Part shown: one piece after another, positions 22,300 to 56,818 of the stretch
How positions within the stretch are numbered: the stretch's first letter is position 1
Layout of the letters: each line of letters opens with the position of its first letter
IMG/VR virus record: IMGVR_UViG_3300025030_000088
Span: 1-64,000 of that record
Strand: one strand, 5' to 3'
Length of the DNA: 64,000 nt
Origin: an uncultured virus (IMG/VR IMGVR_UViG_3300025030_000088)
Taxonomy: Duplodnaviria; Heunggongvirae; Uroviricota; Caudoviricetes
Translations under genes and position numbers: made by a program
Notes under the pieces: model-generated
The model's database searches: none
Told to the model about the DNA's origin: nothing
What the model saw: only the letters and a program-made list of their open reading frames with translations

Positions 22300-23094
22300 T
22301 TATAATGGTTTATTACTATTTTCTATTTTCCTACTTTTATCATATTCTCTTTTCCACAACTTATTTTGTTCTAATTTATTTATTTTAGCACAATCACTAC
22401 AATATTTATTTTTATTATTTCTCATTATAATTAATCTACAACAATTATTTCCTTCACAAACATCAATTCTATAACCTTTCCAATCTAAATATTCATATAT
22501 AAAATCTATAAAATCAATAATTTCAATAGCAACTTTACCTTCATCTTTTGCAAATAAAACTTTCATATTAGTACATTCAACTTTTCTTGACACCTCTATT
22601 AATTCCATATCTTTTAATTTATTAATCATTAAACCTTGATCTTTTTTACTTATTGCCATTTTTGTATCACTAAAAATATCTTTTAAACTTGAATTAACCC
22701 AATTAGCTTTATTTTTATTCATTTGATTATATATTTTAGAATAAACAAGTAAGACAAAAGCTAATTTTTCTAATCTTAAATTATTAATACTATTTATAAT
22801 TTCTAGTTCATCTTCATATACTAATATATTTATAATATAAAAAAATTCATAATCAGATAAATTACTAACTTGTTTTACAATATTCTCAATGGTATTTTTC
22901 CAATTCATAAAATTATATTTCTTATAATTATTGCTCATAAAATTATCAATAGAATCAATAACTTGTTCCTTATCTTGACCAATCTTAAAAAAATGTTTTG
23001 CTAATAATTTTATTGTGATACTTGGTTTATCATCAACATATCCATCATTTAATGATTTATTTAATAATACTTTTTCATTCAATATTATTTTCAT
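22300..23094 (-). CDS. RNA-polymerase-adjacent protein with C-terminal zinc ribbon
   Basis: ATG after GAGG overlapping the RNAP stop; C-terminal C...C / YCSDC. Confidence 0.6.
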   Translation of the reverse strand: MKIILNEKVLLNKSLNDGYVDDKPSITIKLLAKHFFKIGQDKEQVIDSIDNFMSNNYKKYNFMNWKNTIENIVKQVSNLSDYEFFYIINILVYEDELEIINSINNLRLEKLAFVLLVYSKIYNQMNKNKANWVNSSLKDIFSDTKMAISKKDQGLMINKLKDMELIEVSRKVECTNMKVLFAKDEGKVAIEIIDFIDFIYEYLDWKGYRIDVCEGNNCCRLIIMRNNKNKYCSDCAKINKLEQNKLWKREYDKSRKIENSNKPL

Positions 23095-26000
23095 TAATAT
23101 CCTCCGTAAACATCGAAAATTTATTACCACCAAACTCAATATCACCAAATTTATTTAAAATAGGGTATGATACAATATAATTATTATTTTTTAATAAATT
23201 GTTAATAATTATATCTCCACAAATATCCCATGCAAATTGTTTAGAATTATTATTCTTGTAGCAAATACTAATTACAATATTACATAATTCTTCAGCATTA
23301 CTACATAATTCATATGCTTTTTTCTTAAAAGTATCTTTTAAAATTTGTCTATGTATTTTATTTTCTTCATTATCAATTCTTTTACTTTTTATATTTTGAG
23401 AATATTGTTGTGTTTTTTCAGTATAATCTTGATATAATTTATTAATAGCATTGTATCTACCTTTAGAATATTTACTATTTGTCATTAGTATTGAATAATC
23501 AAAATCATTATTATTAATTATATTATAATTATCAAACTCTTTTTCAATTCTCCAACAAATACGATTCATCACAGATTTACTTATAGATACAGGCATTTTA
23601 ATATAATACCATTTAAGATATTCAATTTGTTCCTCTGTTTTATTTTCTAAACTTATTAACTCATCTATGGTTATACCGAATCTCATAAGACAAGTATTTT
23701 TAGTTTGGTTTATATATCTATCATATACTTTCTTCCTATATGGATATATATAATTAAAAAAATAAGGTTTTTTATTTGCTACAATACTCTTATCAAAATC
23801 ACTAATAGCAGAACGATAATCATACCATTCTTTAGGTATTTTTTTACTAACTATACCTTTAATTTTATCTATCGCATTTTGTTGATAATTTTGCCCACAC
23901 ATAATTCTATTTAATACTTCTTTATATTCTTTACTATCTTCTTTAAATTTTACTAATACATCAAACATTGAAGTGATATGATTTGTTGTTACACCTATAT
24001 CATCTCCAAATCCATCTTTATTTGATTTTATAAAATCTTTTTTCTTAGGAATTATTTTATCTGCTGTTTTTTGCACACAAAATATTGCATCTGTTTCTTT
24101 AATGGAATTAAGTATCGTAGAATTATTAGTTGTAAATACACAATCACTCGATTGTACCCCTGCTTTCGCAGTATTTCAAAAGGGACTAGACTATATCATC
24201 ATCCTTAAAAAATTAAGGAGTCCGGCACTTCGATTTAAGGGAATTTCACCCACTGTATCGCTACAGTCCTACTCCTATTGTGGAATTTCACCACTATTTC
24301 AGGATAGTCGTTTAACGATTATCTTAATAATTATTAAGATTTCGCACAGGATTATCATATGTGTGTTTATTTATATTAATTTAACTAACAAATTTATAAT
24401 AATGTTTTAAATATGATTTATTATTATTAATACTTAGTATTATATTACCTCTTATAGAATCAACTTTTGCTTTTGTAAAATTATTATCCCTTAAATATTC
24501 TGCACAAGCACCTATATATTCAAAAGTATCTATATAATTATTATTAATATCATATAATTGTATTTTTCTTGCTCTGCCATTTTGCTCTTTTGGTCTAGAA
24601 TTATTTAGTTTTGCTAATTCTGGATTATTCATGTATTTTAATTTTAAACTATTATTGTTATAATTTGGATTATTTTCACCTTTCATTCTTCCATCTCTTG
24701 CAATATGTCTATTATGTAAAACTGTATATTTAATATTATATTCATGTGTTTCCCACTCTAAATTATCGACATGATTATTAGTTCTATCAAAATCTTTATG
24801 ATTAACTTCTGGATAATTATTAATATTATTAATAAATAATTTTGCAACCAATCTATGTAATCTTTCAGTTATTCTACAATCATTTTTCCCAACAGTTACA
24901 CAAACATATCCATCTTTATTTAATCTAGTTTTTAATAATTTTCCAGAACTAACTCCTATAATATTACCATAATTACTAACCTCATAATCCAGACCATTTA
25001 TATTAATATTTTTCCAAACTTCTATATTTTATTCCTCCTTGATTATAAACACACACTTAGACTTCCCCTGTTAGCCACATTGTTAAGTAGTCATTTCCTA
25101 CTACAAACAATTAAGTCAATGTGACACCTTGCTCTGCAAGTTCACCGGATTTTTCATATGTTATTACTAACATAAGGGACTGTAATCAATCCTTATCTAA
25201 ACCATTTAAAGCATGAGCAGTAGTATCCCATGAATTAAAAATTGTAATTGTATTCATATATTTATACCATTTTCGCATATCTTCTGTATTCTTCAAATTT
25301 AATATTCTAATATTATTGTGACAAGTCATAGGAGCACGAAAACAAGCAACTTTATCTACATCTAAATCATTCCAATATTTAGAATAAAATTCTCCTTCTT
25401 TTAACAAACCTGTTACTTCCATTCCAAATATATTTTGACATAAACTAAAAATATCACCTGAAACAATAGAGTAATTTGCCTTTGTCTTTAATACACCTAT
25501 CTTAGCATCTTTAATTCTTTTTTTAATCGTATTATGTATTTTATTTTTGACAAAAGAATCATCTATCATTCTTTTATCAATCATTAACGCTTTAATAAAA
25601 TCATTTTCTTCATTATTAAAATTAATTTTATCTAAATGTATACCTTTAAGAAATAATATACTTTTTCTATAATCCTTACTAATAATATCATGTATTTCTT
25701 CTGTCGTTGGTTTAATTAACTGTTCAATACCTTCAGTATTTAAGTATAAAGATTGCAAAAATTGGTAATTTGTATGTCGTTCATTTTCCAATACTTTAGG
25801 TGTATGTTTTGTAATACTAAATGAATATCCATTATTTTTACAACAAGATAGATAATGTTCAAGTGAATCATAAGAATCCCAAAGTTTAAGCATTGAGGTT
25901 GTTAAAATTAATTCTATATTTCTAATGTCTCTATCTTCATTCCAAACATCCTTAACTATATATTTTTTATTTGCTATATTTTTTGCAAAATCTTGGAAAT

Positions 26001-26862
26001 TAAACGAAAAAATCATGCCTTTACAGAAAGAATTACGCAGACAATATCCACTAGGTATAAAATATTCTTTATCTTCTTCATCAATACTTTTATCATTATT
26101 AATTTCTTTTATCCATCTTCTACTTAATTCAGGTGAGATAATACCATACCCATCACTATCATTTAATTCAATAGGATAATCTTTTTCATATACAATATCA
26201 GGATACTCTGATATAGTATCATCTATTTTAATTACATTTGCTTTAAAATTTGTTATACAGTCATTTACAACTAGTATTCCTTTTGGATCTGATACAGGAA
26301 TACTAGAAGAAGTAACTAAAGATTTATATGATTCTAGTTTTGCAGGTATAAAATTATTATTCATATTTCTACCATTATCTATTTTATTTTCTAAATCTTC
26401 ATAAACATTTTCACTAACATAAGTTATTGTATATTTTTTTACTCCTCCAGGAGTGCCTAGTAGATGTTTAAATTTAACACCGTTAATATAAAATCCTTTC
26501 TTACTATTCATTCTATCAAAATCTTTATTGTTATCTATTACTATACAAACATAATCCTTTATCAATAATAAATCATATATTTTATTATATAATGATTTAA
26601 TTTTTCTACGATTATCAATAGAAGTAGGTAGTTTTTTTATCTTGCTTATATCCCTATAAACATTATTAACTTTTTCATATATAGATTTAGTGTTAACTTT
26701 ATTTATAATATCTATAAATCTAATTAATGCACTTTCTGCCAAAGAAACTAATTCATTTTTATCAGATGCTTCATCAATACTAATATTTAAATTCCATTTT
26801 GATTTTCTTAATCTAGTAGAATTAATTTTATATATGTATCTTTGTGGTGGGTAATTTGACAA
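23075..26862 (-). CDS. YonO-like single-subunit DNA-dependent RNA polymerase, spliced: exon 1 26862-25189, exon 2 24148-23075 (~915 aa)
   Basis: DGYG, R....KG, FRAP, LNGLDKD|SD catalytic motif across the splice junction, IG..TN, Q..AID..KG, KPYFF.YIY. Confidence 0.85.
24149..25188 (-). ncRNA. Group I intron (1040 nt) carrying a homing endonuclease ORF
   Basis: 5' exon AUAAGGAU pairs with intron GUCC(C)UUAU (U.G). Terminal G. P10 UGAUUAC/GUGAUUG. P3 UCCGGU/GCCGGA. P7 GACUA/UAGUC (AAACGACUA ... GAUAUAGUCUAG). Confidence 0.9.
24381..25025 (-). CDS. Intron-encoded NUMOD4-HNH homing endonuclease
   Basis: EVWK...YEVSNYG (NUMOD4), HRLVAKLFI, VNHKD..RTNNHVDNLEW (HNH). Probable ATA start after AAGGAGG. 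Confidence 0.85.
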   Translation of the reverse strand: MEVWKNININGLDYEVSNYGNIIGVSSGKLLKTRLNKDGYVCVTVGKNDCRITERLHRLVAKLFINNINNYPEVNHKDFDRTNNHVDNLEWETHEYNIKYTVLHNRHIARDGRMKGENNPNYNNNSLKLKYMNNPELAKLNNSRPKEQNGRARKIQLYDINNNYIDTFEYIGACAEYLRDNNFTKAKVDSIRGNIILSINNNKSYLKHYYKFVS

Positions 26863-38263: not shown

Positions 38264-39109
38264 CTACAATCCAATCCTCAAATTATTAATTTTCTTCTTA
38301 ATATTTTCTTTTCTTGCTTGTGCATAAATGCCTACGGTATTTAGTTTGCTATGACCGAGTTGATTCTGTAATTCTGGTAATGTAAAAACTCCTTGTTCTA
38401 TTGCACTCGTAGCCATATGATGTCTTAATTGGTGAATTCCAACCTTACAATCATCACCATAACTATTAAATATATAATTAATTGTACTTTTATCTAATTT
38501 CTCACTTCTTTCAGATAAAAATATATATTGACTACTAGCAAATTTATGTTTCTCTCTAACCTCCAAATAATCTTTAATAACTTTTATTGCAACATCATTT
38601 AACAATACAGTTCTTTCCTTATCACCTTTACCAATTAATTTCAATTCTCCTTTTTCTATATCTAAATTTCTTAATTTCAAATTTGTAATTTCTTCTCTCC
38701 TAATTCCTGTATGAGCAATAAGAAAAACAATAGCAATATTTCTATCTCTATGCAAATTATATTTATTACTAACTTTATCTAAAAATTCAGACACTTGTGA
38801 TTCTGTTATATTTGTTGGATTGCCTTTACCTTGTATCTTAATAAAATCCCTTTTAATAACTTTTATACTATCAATTAACCCTAACATTAATAAAAATTCA
38901 TTAAATGATTTAATTGCAGATAATTTTCTATTAATAGAGGAAGATGATAAATTATTAATCTCTTCCTTATATTTAATAATAGAATCCCTACTAATATCAT
39001 CATGTAAAGTAAAGAAGTGATTTAAGTCTGACACATATGATGATATTGTATTATTTGATTTTGCTTGATTAATTAGATAATTTTTGTATTGTTCAATTTT
39101 ATTTTTCAT
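38264..39109 (-). CDS. XerC/D-like tyrosine recombinase
   Basis: TGIR, GKGDK.R, HQLRH, LGH and catalytic Y all present; N-terminal SAM-like domain (S.NT..SY). Confidence 0.9.
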   Translation of the reverse strand: MKNKIEQYKNYLINQAKSNNTISSYVSDLNHFFTLHDDISRDSIIKYKEEINNLSSSSINRKLSAIKSFNEFLLMLGLIDSIKVIKRDFIKIQGKGNPTNITESQVSEFLDKVSNKYNLHRDRNIAIVFLIAHTGIRREEITNLKLRNLDIEKGELKLIGKGDKERTVLLNDVAIKVIKDYLEVREKHKFASSQYIFLSERSEKLDKSTINYIFNSYGDDCKVGIHQLRHHMATSAIEQGVFTLPELQNQLGHSKLNTVGIYAQARKENIKKKINNLRIGL

Positions 39110-40761: not shown

Positions 40762-42074
40762 TAATATTGAAATTAGATAAAGATAAAATTATTAAGAATA
40801 TTAAAAAGAAAATTAAAGAAGTAAGTGATAATTATATGAGGAATTTATCTTATGAACCATTAAAACCTCCTACTAAAGAAAATATTAGACAAATGATTAA
40901 GAAAGAAATTAGAATGAGGAAGAGTAGAGAAATAGAAGCAGAAATAGAGAATATAATGTTTGAATGTAAATTATATAATACTAAAGGTGAATATCCTCTC
41001 CATATAAATACTAATAAAAAAGGAGATAATCATTATCAAACATTTTGGAAATTATCGTATGGATTAAATTATGAAGATATTATTGATAAGAGTAAATATT
41101 TTGCAGATGCTTTAACTGCACAGATTAATATTGAACCAAGAAAAGGATTATTAATGATTGAAGTTATTAAAGGAATTATACCTGAGAAAATACAATATGA
41201 ATTTAATTATATTGAACATATGGATAAGAATGTAGTTGTACCACTTGGTTATGATCAATCTGGTTTAGTTGTTTGGAATCTTGAAGATATACCTCATTGT
41301 TTAATTGCAGGTGTAACTCATAGTGGAAAATCAATTTTATTAACTGGTTGGGTAGATGCATTATTGCAAAATCCAAATGTTATATTATTTGTAATTGATT
41401 TAGCAATGGCAGATTTTTATCATGTAAAAAATTATTGTATATTTGGTAGTACATTAGATGATGCAGAAAATATATTAGAATATCTTATAAATGAATGTAA
41501 TAGAAGAATACAATTAATGACACTTAAAGCAGGAGTAGTTAAAATACAGAAATATAATAATAAGTATCCTAATGATAAATTGCCATATCTTGTATTAATG
41601 ATAGATGAATTTGCTTTCACTTCTCCTAGAAAATATGATGATAAAGACACAAAGAAATTAAGACAAAGATTACAAGGTATGACTGATCAACTTGCTCAAA
41701 TGGCAAGGAAAGCTGGCATACATTTAGTTGTTGCTATGCAAAGACCATCAAAAGAGTTAATACCAATGGAGATAAAAAGTAATTTTCCTGGTGCTATAAG
41801 TTTTAAAACTGTTAATTTAGGTACTAGTAAAACTATATTGGAAAATACAAGTGCATTTTATTTGCCTAGAATAAAAGGTAGATTTATGGCACAATGGGAA
41901 AGTAAACAGATAGAAGTTCAAGCAATGTTATTAGAACAAGAGGATTCTATTAGAAGATTAAAAATGTATGATAAAATCACAGATAAGATGAATGTTAAAG
42001 GAGATGATATTTATAATAGATTATGGCAATATCAAATATATGAACACACGACAAAAAGGTTATTACCGAGATAG
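40758..42074 (+). CDS. FtsK/SpoIIIE-family ATPase
   Basis: PHCLIAGVTHSGKS (Walker A), LVLMIDE (Walker B), ARKAGIHLVVAMQRP. Confidence 0.9.
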   Translation: MIILKLDKDKIIKNIKKKIKEVSDNYMRNLSYEPLKPPTKENIRQMIKKEIRMRKSREIEAEIENIMFECKLYNTKGEYPLHINTNKKGDNHYQTFWKLSYGLNYEDIIDKSKYFADALTAQINIEPRKGLLMIEVIKGIIPEKIQYEFNYIEHMDKNVVVPLGYDQSGLVVWNLEDIPHCLIAGVTHSGKSILLTGWVDALLQNPNVILFVIDLAMADFYHVKNYCIFGSTLDDAENILEYLINECNRRIQLMTLKAGVVKIQKYNNKYPNDKLPYLVLMIDEFAFTSPRKYDDKDTKKLRQRLQGMTDQLAQMARKAGIHLVVAMQRPSKELIPMEIKSNFPGAISFKTVNLGTSKTILENTSAFYLPRIKGRFMAQWESKQIEVQAMLLEQEDSIRRLKMYDKITDKMNVKGDDIYNRLWQYQIYEHTTKRLLPR

Positions 42075-42711
42075 ATTAATAGTTTCAACAATTGAAGATT
42101 TTGAAGTGTTGAGTACAGAACAAATATATTATTTATTCTTCTCTGATATTAAACATGGTATTATTAAATGCAGGGAGAGATTAAGACAATTAAGAAAAAG
42201 AGGGAAAATATTATCATATAGATTAGATATAAATGAATGTAGTTATCATTTTATAGATAAAAAACCATATTATTTACAACATAACGTGAATAGAAATTGG
42301 GGATTTATGTATATAATGAATATGGTTAAATGTGAATATAAATATTTAAAGTTTGATGAAATAAGATTAGAATATTATATGAAGTGTGGTATTAGGACAG
42401 ATGGAATAATAGGATTTAAGAATTATGTGACAGGTGAATATAGATATTGGATATTAGAAAGTGATAGAAATGATAGTAGGAATAAGTTTACTAAGATTAA
42501 AAACTACAATGATAAATATGGGAATAATGGTGAGGAATATAGGAATGAGTATTGGTTTGATAGAGTAGAAAGGTTTCCACATGTATTGATTGTATGTGAT
42601 AATAATAAAAAAAGAGATAAGATATTGAATATGATTGTTGATGATAATATGAATGGTTTAAAGTTTATTGTTGTTACTGTAGATAAAATAAAAAAGATGT
42701 TGAGATTATAG
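41992..42711 (+). CDS. Replication-relaxation family protein (wHTH + PD-(D/E)xK)
   Basis: RD..I...IEDF.VLSTEQI...F, RL..L, H, IRTDG, ILESDR, FTKI.NY, FP.VLIV. Confidence 0.7.
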   Translation: MLKEMIFIIDYGNIKYMNTRQKGYYRDRLIVSTIEDFEVLSTEQIYYLFFSDIKHGIIKCRERLRQLRKRGKILSYRLDINECSYHFIDKKPYYLQHNVNRNWGFMYIMNMVKCEYKYLKFDEIRLEYYMKCGIRTDGIIGFKNYVTGEYRYWILESDRNDSRNKFTKIKNYNDKYGNNGEEYRNEYWFDRVERFPHVLIVCDNNKKRDKILNMIVDDNMNGLKFIVVTVDKIKKMLRL

Positions 42712-43333: not shown

Positions 43334-43964
43334 GTATAAATTTAGATCTCCTCAAAATTATAAGTAGACAATGTAAATAGGGTTAATATAGTTAAATTTA
43401 ATTCTTTGAAATGGGGATTAATTTTTTGTAAAAAGTAGTTGTATATATAAAGTAAGAGTATAGATAATAGAAATGAAATAATAATAAAAAAAATTTACCA
43501 AAGGTGAAAAAATAATAAATCACTGTAAATCATTGTTACATAAGCGTTTAAAGCATATAGCATGGACAAGTTGTATTATATTATATACACTTTATCTGAG
43601 GGATGTTGCCTAAAATATTGTATGGTAAGGAATTGATGGTTATTTGGTTTAAGTTAAGTTTGGTAAATTTTTAGGTTGTTATTTTAAAAACATAATTAAT
43701 AATTAAATATAATAAATTATAAACAAAAATCAAAATTGTTTATATAGTTAAAAACTAACCAACGTATCCAAATTAGGTTTAGTTATATTGGTTTGGTTTT
43801 GTAAAAGTGATATAAATGTAGATAGTATAATGGATGTAGGGATGTTTAGGTAAAATATATTAACACTATTTTATATAAATTTAATGGTAAAAATATTATT
43901 CGATGTTTATGAATTTAATTTTATTTATTTGGTATATTATGAGTATATTTTAAAGTGTAATTAG

Positions 43965-43996
43965 AGTATGATTAAAGTATGATTAAAGTATGATTA
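43965..43996 (+). repeat. Tandem repeat AGTATGATTAA x3
   Basis: Direct reading of the sequence (third copy 10/11). Confidence 0.85.
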
Positions 43997-44276
43997 GGAT
44001 AAATTTAATGTGTGAGAGATTGTTGGTATTATTTGATTTGTGATATAATAAAGGAGAGTGAAATTAGTGAGTAGAGTGAGGATAAAGTAGTATTTGTTGA
44101 TAAAATTTGAACGATTTTATTGATTAGAATTAAAAATATGTGGTGTAGGAGTGATTTAAAAGTGTTTTGATTATTATGTGTAAATAGTTGTTATTTATGA
44201 TGTTGTACGATTGATTAGCGATAATCGCAAGTTAAAAATAAAATGGACGTGAAGATGCATCTGATTAGGTGGCATA

Positions 44277-44291
44277 TGATAATGATTATCA
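44277..44291. promoter_or_regulatory. Fur box (perfect 7-1-7 TGATAAT-G-ATTATCA)
   Basis: Exact match to the Fur 7-1-7 consensus. Confidence 0.7.
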
Positions 44292-44338
44292 CTCTCAATT
44301 TGTAAACTACGCCCCGGTACTGCTCCCGACTTTGAATA

Positions 44339-44366
44339 TCTCTACATAATAAACCTTATGTAGAGA
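44339..44366. other. dif-like tyrosine-recombinase site (11-6-11 perfect inverted repeat)
   Basis: TCTCTACATAA-TAAACC-TTATGTAGAGA; 28 bp; arm resembles the Firmicute dif arm TTATGTAAACT. Confidence 0.75.
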
Positions 44367-44675
44367 ATTGTTGGTTGAATATGGTAGTATTGGGAATTGT
44401 TAGAATATTTGTTTGTCGGCTGAGTGGCTGCTTGTTGTAGCTATGAGTGGTAAATGTATAATTGTATATGTGTGAGTGGCATAAATACCCTAGAATAATA
44501 TTTACATTTGATGTGGTCGTCGTGAAGCTACATAAAATAGAATTGATGATTATTCCGGTTAATATTCTCCTGCCAGCTTCGCCGGGAATAATTTTGTCGT
44601 GAATATAAATTATAGAACATTGAGTGTGAAGAATTAAGTGGTAAACTGTGAAACACAATCAAAAAATAATTATAA

Positions 44676-44691
44676 TGTTCCACGTGGAACA
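44676..44691. other. parS site
   Basis: Perfect palindrome TGTTCCACGTGGAACA matching the ParB/Spo0J parS consensus. Confidence 0.85.
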
Positions 44692-44807
44692 TTTTTAACT
44701 GCTGTCTTGTCAGGTGTATATACAGCTGTCTTGTCACATCGTTTTAGATAACAAACAGCGTTTTGTTTAACACGTTACTACTTTAACACTTTACCATACT
44801 AAAGGAT

Positions 44808-44840
44808 TTATCCACAACCTTGTTAACAAATTGTGTATAA
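44808..44840. promoter_or_regulatory. Two inverted DnaA boxes
   Basis: TTATCCACA (44808-16) and TGTGTATAA (44832-40; reverse complement TTATACACA). Confidence 0.65.
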
Positions 44841-45367
44841 CTTTTTACATCTAATACTAATTAATACTACATAATTATCACACAATTACAAAGCAATAAA
44901 CACTACAACATATAGTTATACAATCAATATCACATAGTAATATAAACTATCTAATATAGAAATGATTTCTATATAATAATCTGACAATTTAACTATTGTA
45001 TAAGTGTACTAGTAACCTCATACACTGTATCATAATGTAACATTATTGCACACTGTGTAACTTTATACAATGTATATAAGTAAACAACGTATAATAATAT
45101 ACATAATACAAAATATCTAACAATTTTAACAACTCCGACTACTAAGTCAGAACAACATAAAACATAATATACATATATCTACATATTCATATAATACAAT
45201 ATAGTATACCAGTGTATTATCTCACTCATACACTAAAATCAATCTCCCACTAAACATACATATAATACTCTACTATATACCATACTATAGTATATATAAA
45301 ACCAACAACTAATAAAACCATATACAACAGCTATTCCACAACCATGATAATAAAATGTTGATAACTT

Positions 45368-45887
45368 TGTTACCAAAAAACATAAACACATAAATATAAA
45401 ACAAGTCATCAATATTAATATCATGCTATCAAAGTGCTACCAAAAATCAATATATACCACATCATACGTTACCAATAATATAATCAACTAACATACACTA
45501 TATTACAAATCATGTTACTAATCATATTACTACTAATACTTAAATTATAAATTATCTATTATAAATCATCTATTACCATTTAATAAAGTATCACGCATTG
45601 TATATTATTACTCTATGCTACCATACATATTATCAACTATGTTACTAAAATAATATATCATGCTACCACGAATAAATATAAATTATTGCCTAATCTATTA
45701 CCTAACATGCTACCAATATAAAAGTATTATATGATACCAAATATTTAGTATCGTTACCAATATTACTATGGATATGATACCTATACATATATACCATATT
45801 ACCGCATTATGATACTATATAATACTTTACTGCTACCACATAAAACAAATATCATACTATCACATACTACCATCAATAGTGGTATCA
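45368..45887 (+). repeat. Dispersed array of YG(C/T/A)TACCA-like octamers
   Basis: TGCTACCA at 45435, 45616, 45661, 45708, 45831; YGTTACCA at 45368, 45467, 45752; TGATACCA at 45732 and inverted at 45880; plus variants. Confidence 0.75.
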
Positions 45888-46412
45888 TCTAAGTATCACT
45901 CTAATATCACCTAATATTTACCAAATCCAAATATCCACACATTAAAATCATAATACACCTACACGCATAAATAATTATACCTGTCTTAAACCCTCTCACA
46001 ACGCCAATAAACCCTATTGTAGTATACCTTAAATTTTAACGTAAAATAAAATCACATACACTAGCACCTACAGAATATAAATATAAATAAAACCAACCAC
46101 GAATCAAACAATATATTATATAAACTATTCCAAAATATCATATATAAACAAATATAAATTTTCCTCATATCTAACCAAATAAGCCTTAATTTATACTAAA
46201 AATATGTTCCATTCTAACACAATAAATCACCTTATTGTTCTATTTTAATACACTATTGTTCCATTATAGAACATGTAATTGTATCATTACAATACACTAA
46301 TAAATTCCAACACAATCCACACAACACATATCAAATATACCCTATATAGTATCATATATAAACAACCTAAAAACCCTATATATAATCACAGATACAAATT
46401 AATTAAATCACT

Positions 46413-46429
46413 ATACCCTATAAGGGTAT
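46413..46429. promoter_or_regulatory. CsoR-type operator-like palindrome
   Basis: ATACCCTATAAGGGTAT (7-3-7), resembling the B. subtilis copZA CsoR operator. Confidence 0.5.
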
Positions 46430-46521
46430 CTAACAGAATATAAATATAATAAATGGTATAAATATTGCATATAATATAGGTAGGTACATATATTTTTAAA
46501 ACGAATAAGGAGGCCGACATA

Positions 46522-46953
46522 ATGACTATTACTAGAGAGGACGCAAAAAATTATTTTATCAAATTGTCCGAAAACGAACCAGAAGATTATTATTTCCAGT
46601 TTATTGCAAAATGTGACATTGTACCTGATGAAATATTTGCTAAAATGGAAAATAGGTCAGACATACGACCGACAGTCATTGAGTATAAAATCCCTAAAGT
46701 TAAAAAACCGAGAAAACCAAGCAAAAAAGCCTATTATGCATTAATTTATAGTGGAGATAGATTTACGGAAAAAGCAACGGGATTTATTACTGGAAGTAAT
46801 AATATGCATGGTGCTAGACATATGGTATATTTAGAATTTGTTGCCAATAGCTTAATAATTGAGCAGGACGACAAGAAGTATATACCAGCTTGGATTGTAG
46901 TGGAAAAAGGACTTTGGGACTTTGTTAATAAAGATGATAAAATCACTGTATAA
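46522..46953 (+). CDS. Early-region hypothetical protein
   Basis: AAGGAGG RBS; terminator follows. Confidence 0.7.
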   Translation: MTITREDAKNYFIKLSENEPEDYYFQFIAKCDIVPDEIFAKMENRSDIRPTVIEYKIPKVKKPRKPSKKAYYALIYSGDRFTEKATGFITGSNNMHGARHMVYLEFVANSLIIEQDDKKYIPAWIVVEKGLWDFVNKDDKITV

Positions 46954-47620: not shown

Positions 47621-47706
47621 GAGGGTTTAAACCTCTTATAAAGTCCCTTAACACTATAATATTTTATAACACTAAGGGATTTTATAAAGGGTTTAACTAA
47701 AAGGAG

Positions 47707-48882: not shown

Positions 48883-48898
48883 TGTTCCACGGGGAACA
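48883..48898. other. parS site (1 mismatch)
   Basis: TGTTCCACGGGGAACA. Confidence 0.7.
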
Positions 48899-56802: not shown

Positions 56803-56818
56803 TGTTCCACGTGGAACA
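56803..56818. other. parS site
   Basis: Perfect TGTTCCACGTGGAACA. Confidence 0.85.

Follow-up and report, generated by a model that had tools for sequence, protein, structure and literature searches.

A probable genome-end locus of an SPbeta/c-st-like phage carries exchangeable sites of host operator type

A non-coding gap in the genome of an uncultured phage carries a cluster of sites resembling the operators of unrelated host DNA-binding proteins, and this gap probably coincides with the place at which the genome is opened for packaging. The DNA analysed here (the window) is a 64,000-nt part of a 71.6-kb virus contig; the gap, at 43340–46520, holds no credible gene, just three minus-strand ORFs of 61–100 aa. 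The original prediction, which was of a 3-kb array of sites for many host regulators, is partly confirmed by sequence comparison: the operator cluster is real, and two of its labels, NrdR and Rrf2-like, fail. The sites for host repressors might function as structural docking points for host proteins at the genome end, a reading to which we attach a probability of about 0.45.

Every string named in the original prediction sits where it had been placed, and the absence of genes holds; the spread over 3 kb does not, the signal being confined to 44260–45240 plus 46205–46430. The claim that the sites have no genes nearby to regulate is also supported for several of them, which match host operator contexts, and most of the operators are 1–2 kb before the first ORF. 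The suggested association with one end of the phage DNA agrees with the location at a probable genome end, beside small early genes, a region that had not been recognised as the pac/terminal-repeat region of SPbeta/c-st-like phages.

The gap as a probable genome terminus

Judged by its genes, which encode a portal, a terminase and head proteins of SPbeta type as well as a YonO-like RNA polymerase (25186–26862; best cultured match Clostridium phage c-st at 47%, with SPbeta at about 25%), the window belongs to an SPbeta/c-st-like phage. A spore former resembling Desulfotomaculum is its probable host. The RNA polymerase gene (23075–26862) is in two pieces of 558 and 333 aa that flank an HNH endonuclease (24381–24851), which probably reflects an intron, the polymerase of relatives being a single ORF of about 915 aa. 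On the left side of the gap are an FtsK module and a XerC/D-like tyrosine recombinase (38264–39109, minus strand), and an ORF (41992–42711) for which the label "Replic_Relax" was considered has no Pfam or NCBIfam match. Small rightward genes, DUF932 and GmrSD_N domains among them, start on the right side, the first of these early-type genes (46522–46953, plus strand) having no family match; an inverted repeat with 33-bp arms between the early genes (47627–47696) is also found in the relative L003. A search for tRNA and tmRNA found none, and blastn of the region against cultured phages gave 10 records, all of them short, chance-level matches.

Synteny and a shared sequence block together indicate that the gap is probably the genome-opening (pac/terminal-repeat) locus. 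The predicted start block (44262–44315, plus strand) aligns without gaps to the yonP–yonR gap of SPbeta, to the start of the c-st terminal repeat, and to four distant phages, in slices picked by eye of which the gaplessly alignable part is short (44299–44315, six invariant columns). For SPbeta, the opening point has been mapped to the yonP–yonR gap, just upstream of yonO (bioRxiv 2021.11.22.469490). The c-st genome ends, with an annotated terminal repeat of 404 bp, 18.1 kb from the start of its polymerase gene, and the corresponding distance in the window, from the polymerase gene to 44262–44690, is 17.4–17.8 kb; by the block alignment, the first base of c-st falls at about 44262. The GC skew flips directly after the parS site described below, and the same change from G-rich to C-rich is common to the gap, SPbeta, c-st and the distant phages compared; the gap, its length and its skew are therefore generic features of the terminus, and they extend to members of the SPbeta/c-st-like group in which operators were not found. 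In the G-rich non-coding flank to the left of the predicted opening point (43340–44260), which has an 11-bp tandem repeat at about 43950–44000, no host operator was found.

Run X2 shows an even contig depth over the whole gap, although contigs cannot show ends. Runs X6 and X12 have extra depth at 44261–44511, which is explained most simply by relatives that share the Fur block. SPbeta-like phages are reported to package their DNA leftward, and under a last-in-first-out rule the right side would then enter the cell first. A conserved, non-palindromic block near 44180–44220 is present in up to 21 of 27 relatives and another, at 44484–44530, in 11–12 of the 27 at two mismatches or fewer and in 16 at three or fewer; both are candidate sites for terminase or for another phage protein.

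Locus L238 has a second terminus-like block at about 4165 on the minus strand, some 1.3 kb from the first and beyond a tyrosine recombinase gene, and L251 has the block in two copies. An ORF of 590–720 aa is inserted just to the left of the terminus block in L038, L054, L061, L066, L081 and L085. Many contigs found as RNA polymerase relatives (L110–L248) stop 3–5 kb upstream of the polymerase gene, and these stops are possibly genome ends.

The Xer site, parS and an exchangeable slot

Related loci were collected by a pattern search with the Fur block, which gave 39 metagenome loci, 29 of them non-redundant when the window is included; L085, a downstream duplicate of L051, was left out of later counts. 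Since the Fur block was the search pattern, its conservation cannot be measured from these loci; it is kept in two of the three relatives that were found by protein and reach the region, and is absent from the third, L003. The loci are kin rather than independent samples, and the family records are 17–66% complete; parB was not found in five of these partial records. Among other searches, 26 of 30 loci from a viral pattern scan were unrelated and were dropped, a single-protein genome scan gave 80 candidates of which none was confirmed, and most of the 160 RNA polymerase loci with 10-kb flanks fell short of the terminus, one having parS in a gap. The order of elements is conserved: a terminus block with the Fur box, the Xer site, parS, one swappable operator, and further operators in the C-rich spacer.

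The Xer/dif-type site (44339–44366) is symmetric (11-6-11), with two 11-bp arms and a conserved inner core, and such a core lies between the Fur block and parS in 28 of 29 loci, compared with 1.6 in shuffles. Ten of these are host-dif-like, nine are symmetric as in the window, four are hybrids, four have an 8-bp spacer, and one (L065) is doubtful. In the symmetric version, both arms change together among loci, and this version may be a substrate of the phage's own XerC/D-like recombinase, which has the full set of catalytic residues (by eye) and appears intact. Both arms of the site in L064 are those of the dif predicted for Desulfotomaculum acetoxidans (PMC3025954). Of 60 dsrA-positive Bacillota genomes, 33 contain a match to the L064-type dif module, almost always a single one. 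An unannotated Xer-type core also lies in the c-st terminal repeat (L012, 93–120). Captured dif sites and operators also indicate the group in which the hosts of uncultured phages are to be sought.

A perfect parS (44674–44693), a 16-bp palindrome with the Spo0J/ParB-type consensus, follows the Xer site. The parS element, which was outside the search pattern, occurs at +366 to +786 from the Fur block in 27 of 29 loci. The 71.6-kb contig has three copies in all, the second (48883–48898) with one mismatch and the third (56803–56818) perfect. Taken together, the pac block, the Xer site and parS would form a coherent unit for packaging, for circularisation or dimer resolution, and for segregation driven by the host.

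Directly after parS is a slot in which, by sequence comparison, related phages exchange one host site for another. In the window, the slot (44697–44741) is occupied by what had been listed as a local repeat; it is a tandem pair of NiaR (YrxA) operators, with the type I core described in PMC2330245, and a site ahead of a niaR gene agrees with it at 24 of 25 nt. Three of 19 host matches to it, including two of the top four, are at niaR, niaR-nadA and nadA. Over 28 loci, the slot holds NiaR sites in three, FapR sites in six and Rrf2-type sites in three. The FapR-slot palindrome has an exact match of 17–18 nt upstream of fapR in three genomes, and the Rrf2-type site resembles one upstream of an Rrf2 gene (a single match); searches with the slot variants of L054, L065, L087 and L038, in five genomes each, were uninformative. 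This swapping at one spot suggests that host proteins are either recruited to the genome end or soaked up there.

In most relatives, the exchangeable operator is followed by a short motif that stays constant (at about 44744–44770 in the window). L069 has a long array of short repeats with an 11-bp period, at roughly +570 to +720 relative to the Fur block, a shorter version of which is at 44765–44800 in the window; these repeats resemble PhoP-type boxes.

Host operator sites in the gap and in its relatives

The window was compared with 1000 local dinucleotide shuffles using 20 consensus motifs, two of them from PMC8457756, with mismatch limits that were fixed after the sites had been seen. The predicted excess over shuffles was found for parS and the two YtrA sites (P < 0.001), Fur (0.007), CsoR (0.008), DnaA (six boxes against 1.9, P = 0.009), the Xer arm (0.02) and CodY (0.028); it was not found for NrdR (0.48) or the Zur motif of C. 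thermocellum (0.40). For the window alone, parS and YtrA are the sole survivors of a 20-fold correction. None of 11 unclaimed motifs is enriched there, the best being CtsR (0.056), and a model-free count of palindromes containing G or C gave four, compared with 1.3 (P = 0.035), with none at 43340–44260.

The enrichment extends to the equivalent locus in relatives. Footprinting in 27 relatives, with 17-mers at two mismatches or fewer, recovered parS in 25, the left Xer arm in 11, the CsoR site in nine, YtrA in seven to eight, the CodY-like string in four and the Zur-like palindrome in two (the Fur box, in all 27, was the search pattern). When classes were counted with host-derived references, those for parS and DnaA being cut from the window, 28 loci contained parS (26), YtrA (20), CsoR-family (11, against 0.4), exact DnaA (8, against 0.8 expected in shuffles), FapR and Zur-type (6 each), and NiaR and Rrf2-type (3 each) sites. 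The mean is 2.96 validated classes per locus compared with 0.10 in shuffles, and the gap of the window has five, with no class present in 24 of the 29 tiles taken from the rest of the phage, counts that are partly circular in that the host references were retrieved with phage queries. The gene contexts in hosts are independent evidence for the operators; to obtain them, phage sites were searched in sets of Bacillota genomes (5 to 64 per search), and the neighbouring genes were read. In the family comparison, the arms of operators are kept and the spacers vary.

The Fur box (44277–44296) matches 16 of 19 consensus positions and falls within the terminus block, in its variable spacer; seven of 16 host loci with look-alikes are intergenic, including sites upstream of feoB, of feoA and at the gene for a solute-binding protein. 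The two YtrA-family operators (45003–45026 and 45211–45234) are long palindromes; the model matches 13 of 34 host genomes, and among 10 host loci the site lies ahead of three GntR genes, one further ABC ATPase and two permease-like ORFs with no Pfam match. The CsoR/RcnR/CstR-family operator (46413–46429) is close to the first early gene, some 90 nt upstream. Its model matches 27 of 34 host genomes, and 12 of 20 host loci are intergenic, including one CsoR-family gene, two rhodaneses, two SBF transporters and FTR1; the other eight, among them the top match, are inside ORFs, and copA/copZ is not among the 20.

A 10-1-10 palindrome and an adjoining CodY-like string (44954–44989) have candidate labels of Zur and CodY. 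They are co-inherited in five loci, with paired changes in the arms, and the window's Zur-like palindrome model found no metal gene at any of 14 host loci. A sister tandem module, in six other loci disjoint from these five, matches a site upstream of znuA (a single match), and Zur-type and YtrA sites occur in tandem, in up to three copies each. A head-to-head pair of DnaA boxes is at 44808–44840 and a degenerate second pair at 45332–45364; G144 has an intergenic cluster similar to that of the DnaA boxes in the window. A 17-bp imperfect palindrome is present three times at 46205–46273 and recurs in relatives upstream of the first gene; no host match centred on it was found. Searches that gave no informative host context were those with 44885–45000, 45025–45170, the Zur-like model of the window and this triple.

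Two labels did not survive. The NrdR-like string (44903–44918) is at chance level against shuffles and in none of 27 relatives, and the claim that dNTP synthesis would be derepressed is therefore unsupported. The IscR/Rrf2-like string (45134–45151) is likewise in none of 27 relatives, and its host matches are uninformative.

When seven distant terminal gaps were scanned, FapR, CsoR, Fur and exact DnaA sites were not found; parS was present in G004 and G005, and there was one YtrA match, in G004. Since the operator set is missing from these gaps, the array is dispensable for the wider SPbeta/c-st-like group.

Docking, titration or sensing, and known systems

We propose that the gap controls the genome end of a c-st/SPbeta-like phage that infects a spore-forming member of the Bacillota, and that it would act as a docking platform for host proteins. 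The opening by terminase would take place near 44262; provided that it lies within a terminal repeat, as in c-st, the Xer site would circularise the incoming genome and resolve dimers of a plasmid-type prophage; parS would load host ParB/SMC, for segregation and entry into the spore. The Fur, NiaR/FapR/Rrf2, YtrA, CsoR-family and Zur-type operators would then serve mainly as tight, normally occupied anchors that coat or organise the end, perhaps as a roadblock beside parS, as accessory architecture for Xer or as a shield for the first-entering DNA, rather than regulon-specific switches. This structural use is favoured because a fixed slot receives sites of unrelated regulons, strong promoters are lacking and the genes are distant; interchangeable operators in a fixed slot suit it at least as well as they do a regulon-specific decoy.

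Another explanation is that the replicating copies of the array titrate low-abundance host repressors, and sequester DnaA too, so as to induce the uptake of iron and zinc, the synthesis of NAD and fatty acids, and transporters of the envelope, the genome end simply offering free non-coding space. All of the identified regulators except ParB, Xer and DnaA are in repressor families, and the near-perfect symmetry of the palindromes, many of them in tandem, keeps titration viable. Tandem copies and a distance from the end of as much as 2 kb suit it as well as they do docking, and synthetic decoys are reported to function in bacteria (PMC7826281, PMC8599769). We nevertheless consider it less likely than docking: each genome has just one to three copies, the operators that match best in hosts (at fapR, niaR, gntR and rrf2) are autoregulatory, which would be expected to buffer titration, unrelated regulons swap within a single slot, and the dNTP arm fails with NrdR. 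Docking and titration can both hold.

A less probable alternative is that of a multi-input sensor, in which the operators would govern an early promoter, or small RNAs that lack annotation, and tie a lysis/lysogeny or packaging decision to the metal, cofactor and envelope status of the host. Such a role would suit the CsoR-family site and the 17-bp triple, neither of which is more than 320 nt away from the first early gene, and phi29 is reported to employ host Spo0A boxes in this way (PMC2731898). However, no strong sigma-A promoter was found in the gap (best match 10/12; 56 sites against 40 ± 7), an Rfam scan of the gap gave just two chance miRNA matches, the CsoR-family site shifts in relatives from +635 to +2130 from the Fur block, and close relatives differ in their inputs. 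Least probable is an ordinary pac/dif/parS locus with an AT-rich spacer of functionless host promoter fragments or chance palindromes, which would accommodate the two failed labels, the kinship of the loci and the partial circularity of the recount but not the excess of classes over shuffles and over the rest of the phage, the conservation of arms with variable spacers, or the host matches at expected genes.

Beyond the docking reading itself, we tentatively regard the locus as a cassette of modules in the form of operators taken from hosts (Fur, Zur, CsoR family, NiaR, FapR, YtrA, Rrf2 and DnaA) which may be exchanged like accessory genes and which might act as a protein-free takeover device, either as a natural multi-repressor sponge or as a cap for entering DNA. 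The takeover of hosts by phages has mostly been sought in proteins and RNAs; here, there are DNA sites for some ten classes of host proteins, family-wide, in one non-coding locus. Repressor titration, if true, would be a new mode of takeover; a structural role, if true, would provide a tractable model for the protection, circularisation and spore segregation of incoming linear DNA.

In the plasmid systems cer and psi, ArgR/PepA or ArcA binds accessory sequences beside the Xer site, so that a metabolic regulator of the host has a structural role there, as is proposed here; those systems have one accessory regulator within about 200 bp, whereas the window has at least five classes over 2 kb, which vary among relatives. 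In P1, the loxP recombination site circularises and resolves a phage-plasmid. Operator-titration decoys (synthetic ones, datA and FURTA) resemble the array in that they bind with high affinity, have no gene attached and could hold a regulator away from its targets; such decoys are engineered or specific to a single protein, and the array has several candidate regulators, for which titration is hypothetical.

The yonP–yonR gap of SPbeta and the c-st repeat share with the window a position upstream of a YonO-type polymerase block, the flip from G-rich to C-rich and a short sequence block, and the c-st repeat also shares an Xer-type core. They differ from it in that Fur, FapR, YtrA, CsoR, parS and exact DnaA sites were not found there, and the gap of the window is about three times as long as that of SPbeta and carries the operator array. 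Phi29, too, has several copies of host ParB/Spo0J sites; its Spo0A boxes serve its own promoters and origins, in contrast to sites of metabolic repressors that are clustered at an end and swappable (PMC2731898). The injection stop signal of T5 is likewise non-coding, near the first-entering end, and contains repeats, palindromes and DnaA boxes; the available part of that report describes no set of repressor operators, parS or dif (bioRxiv 2026.01.13.699316). A literature search by title and the start of abstracts, with most subscription journals outside its coverage, found no description of a phage decoy or operator array. Single elements of the locus have precedents, and the use of host sites at phage genome ends in the form of an array is, as judged from these comparisons, a new variant.
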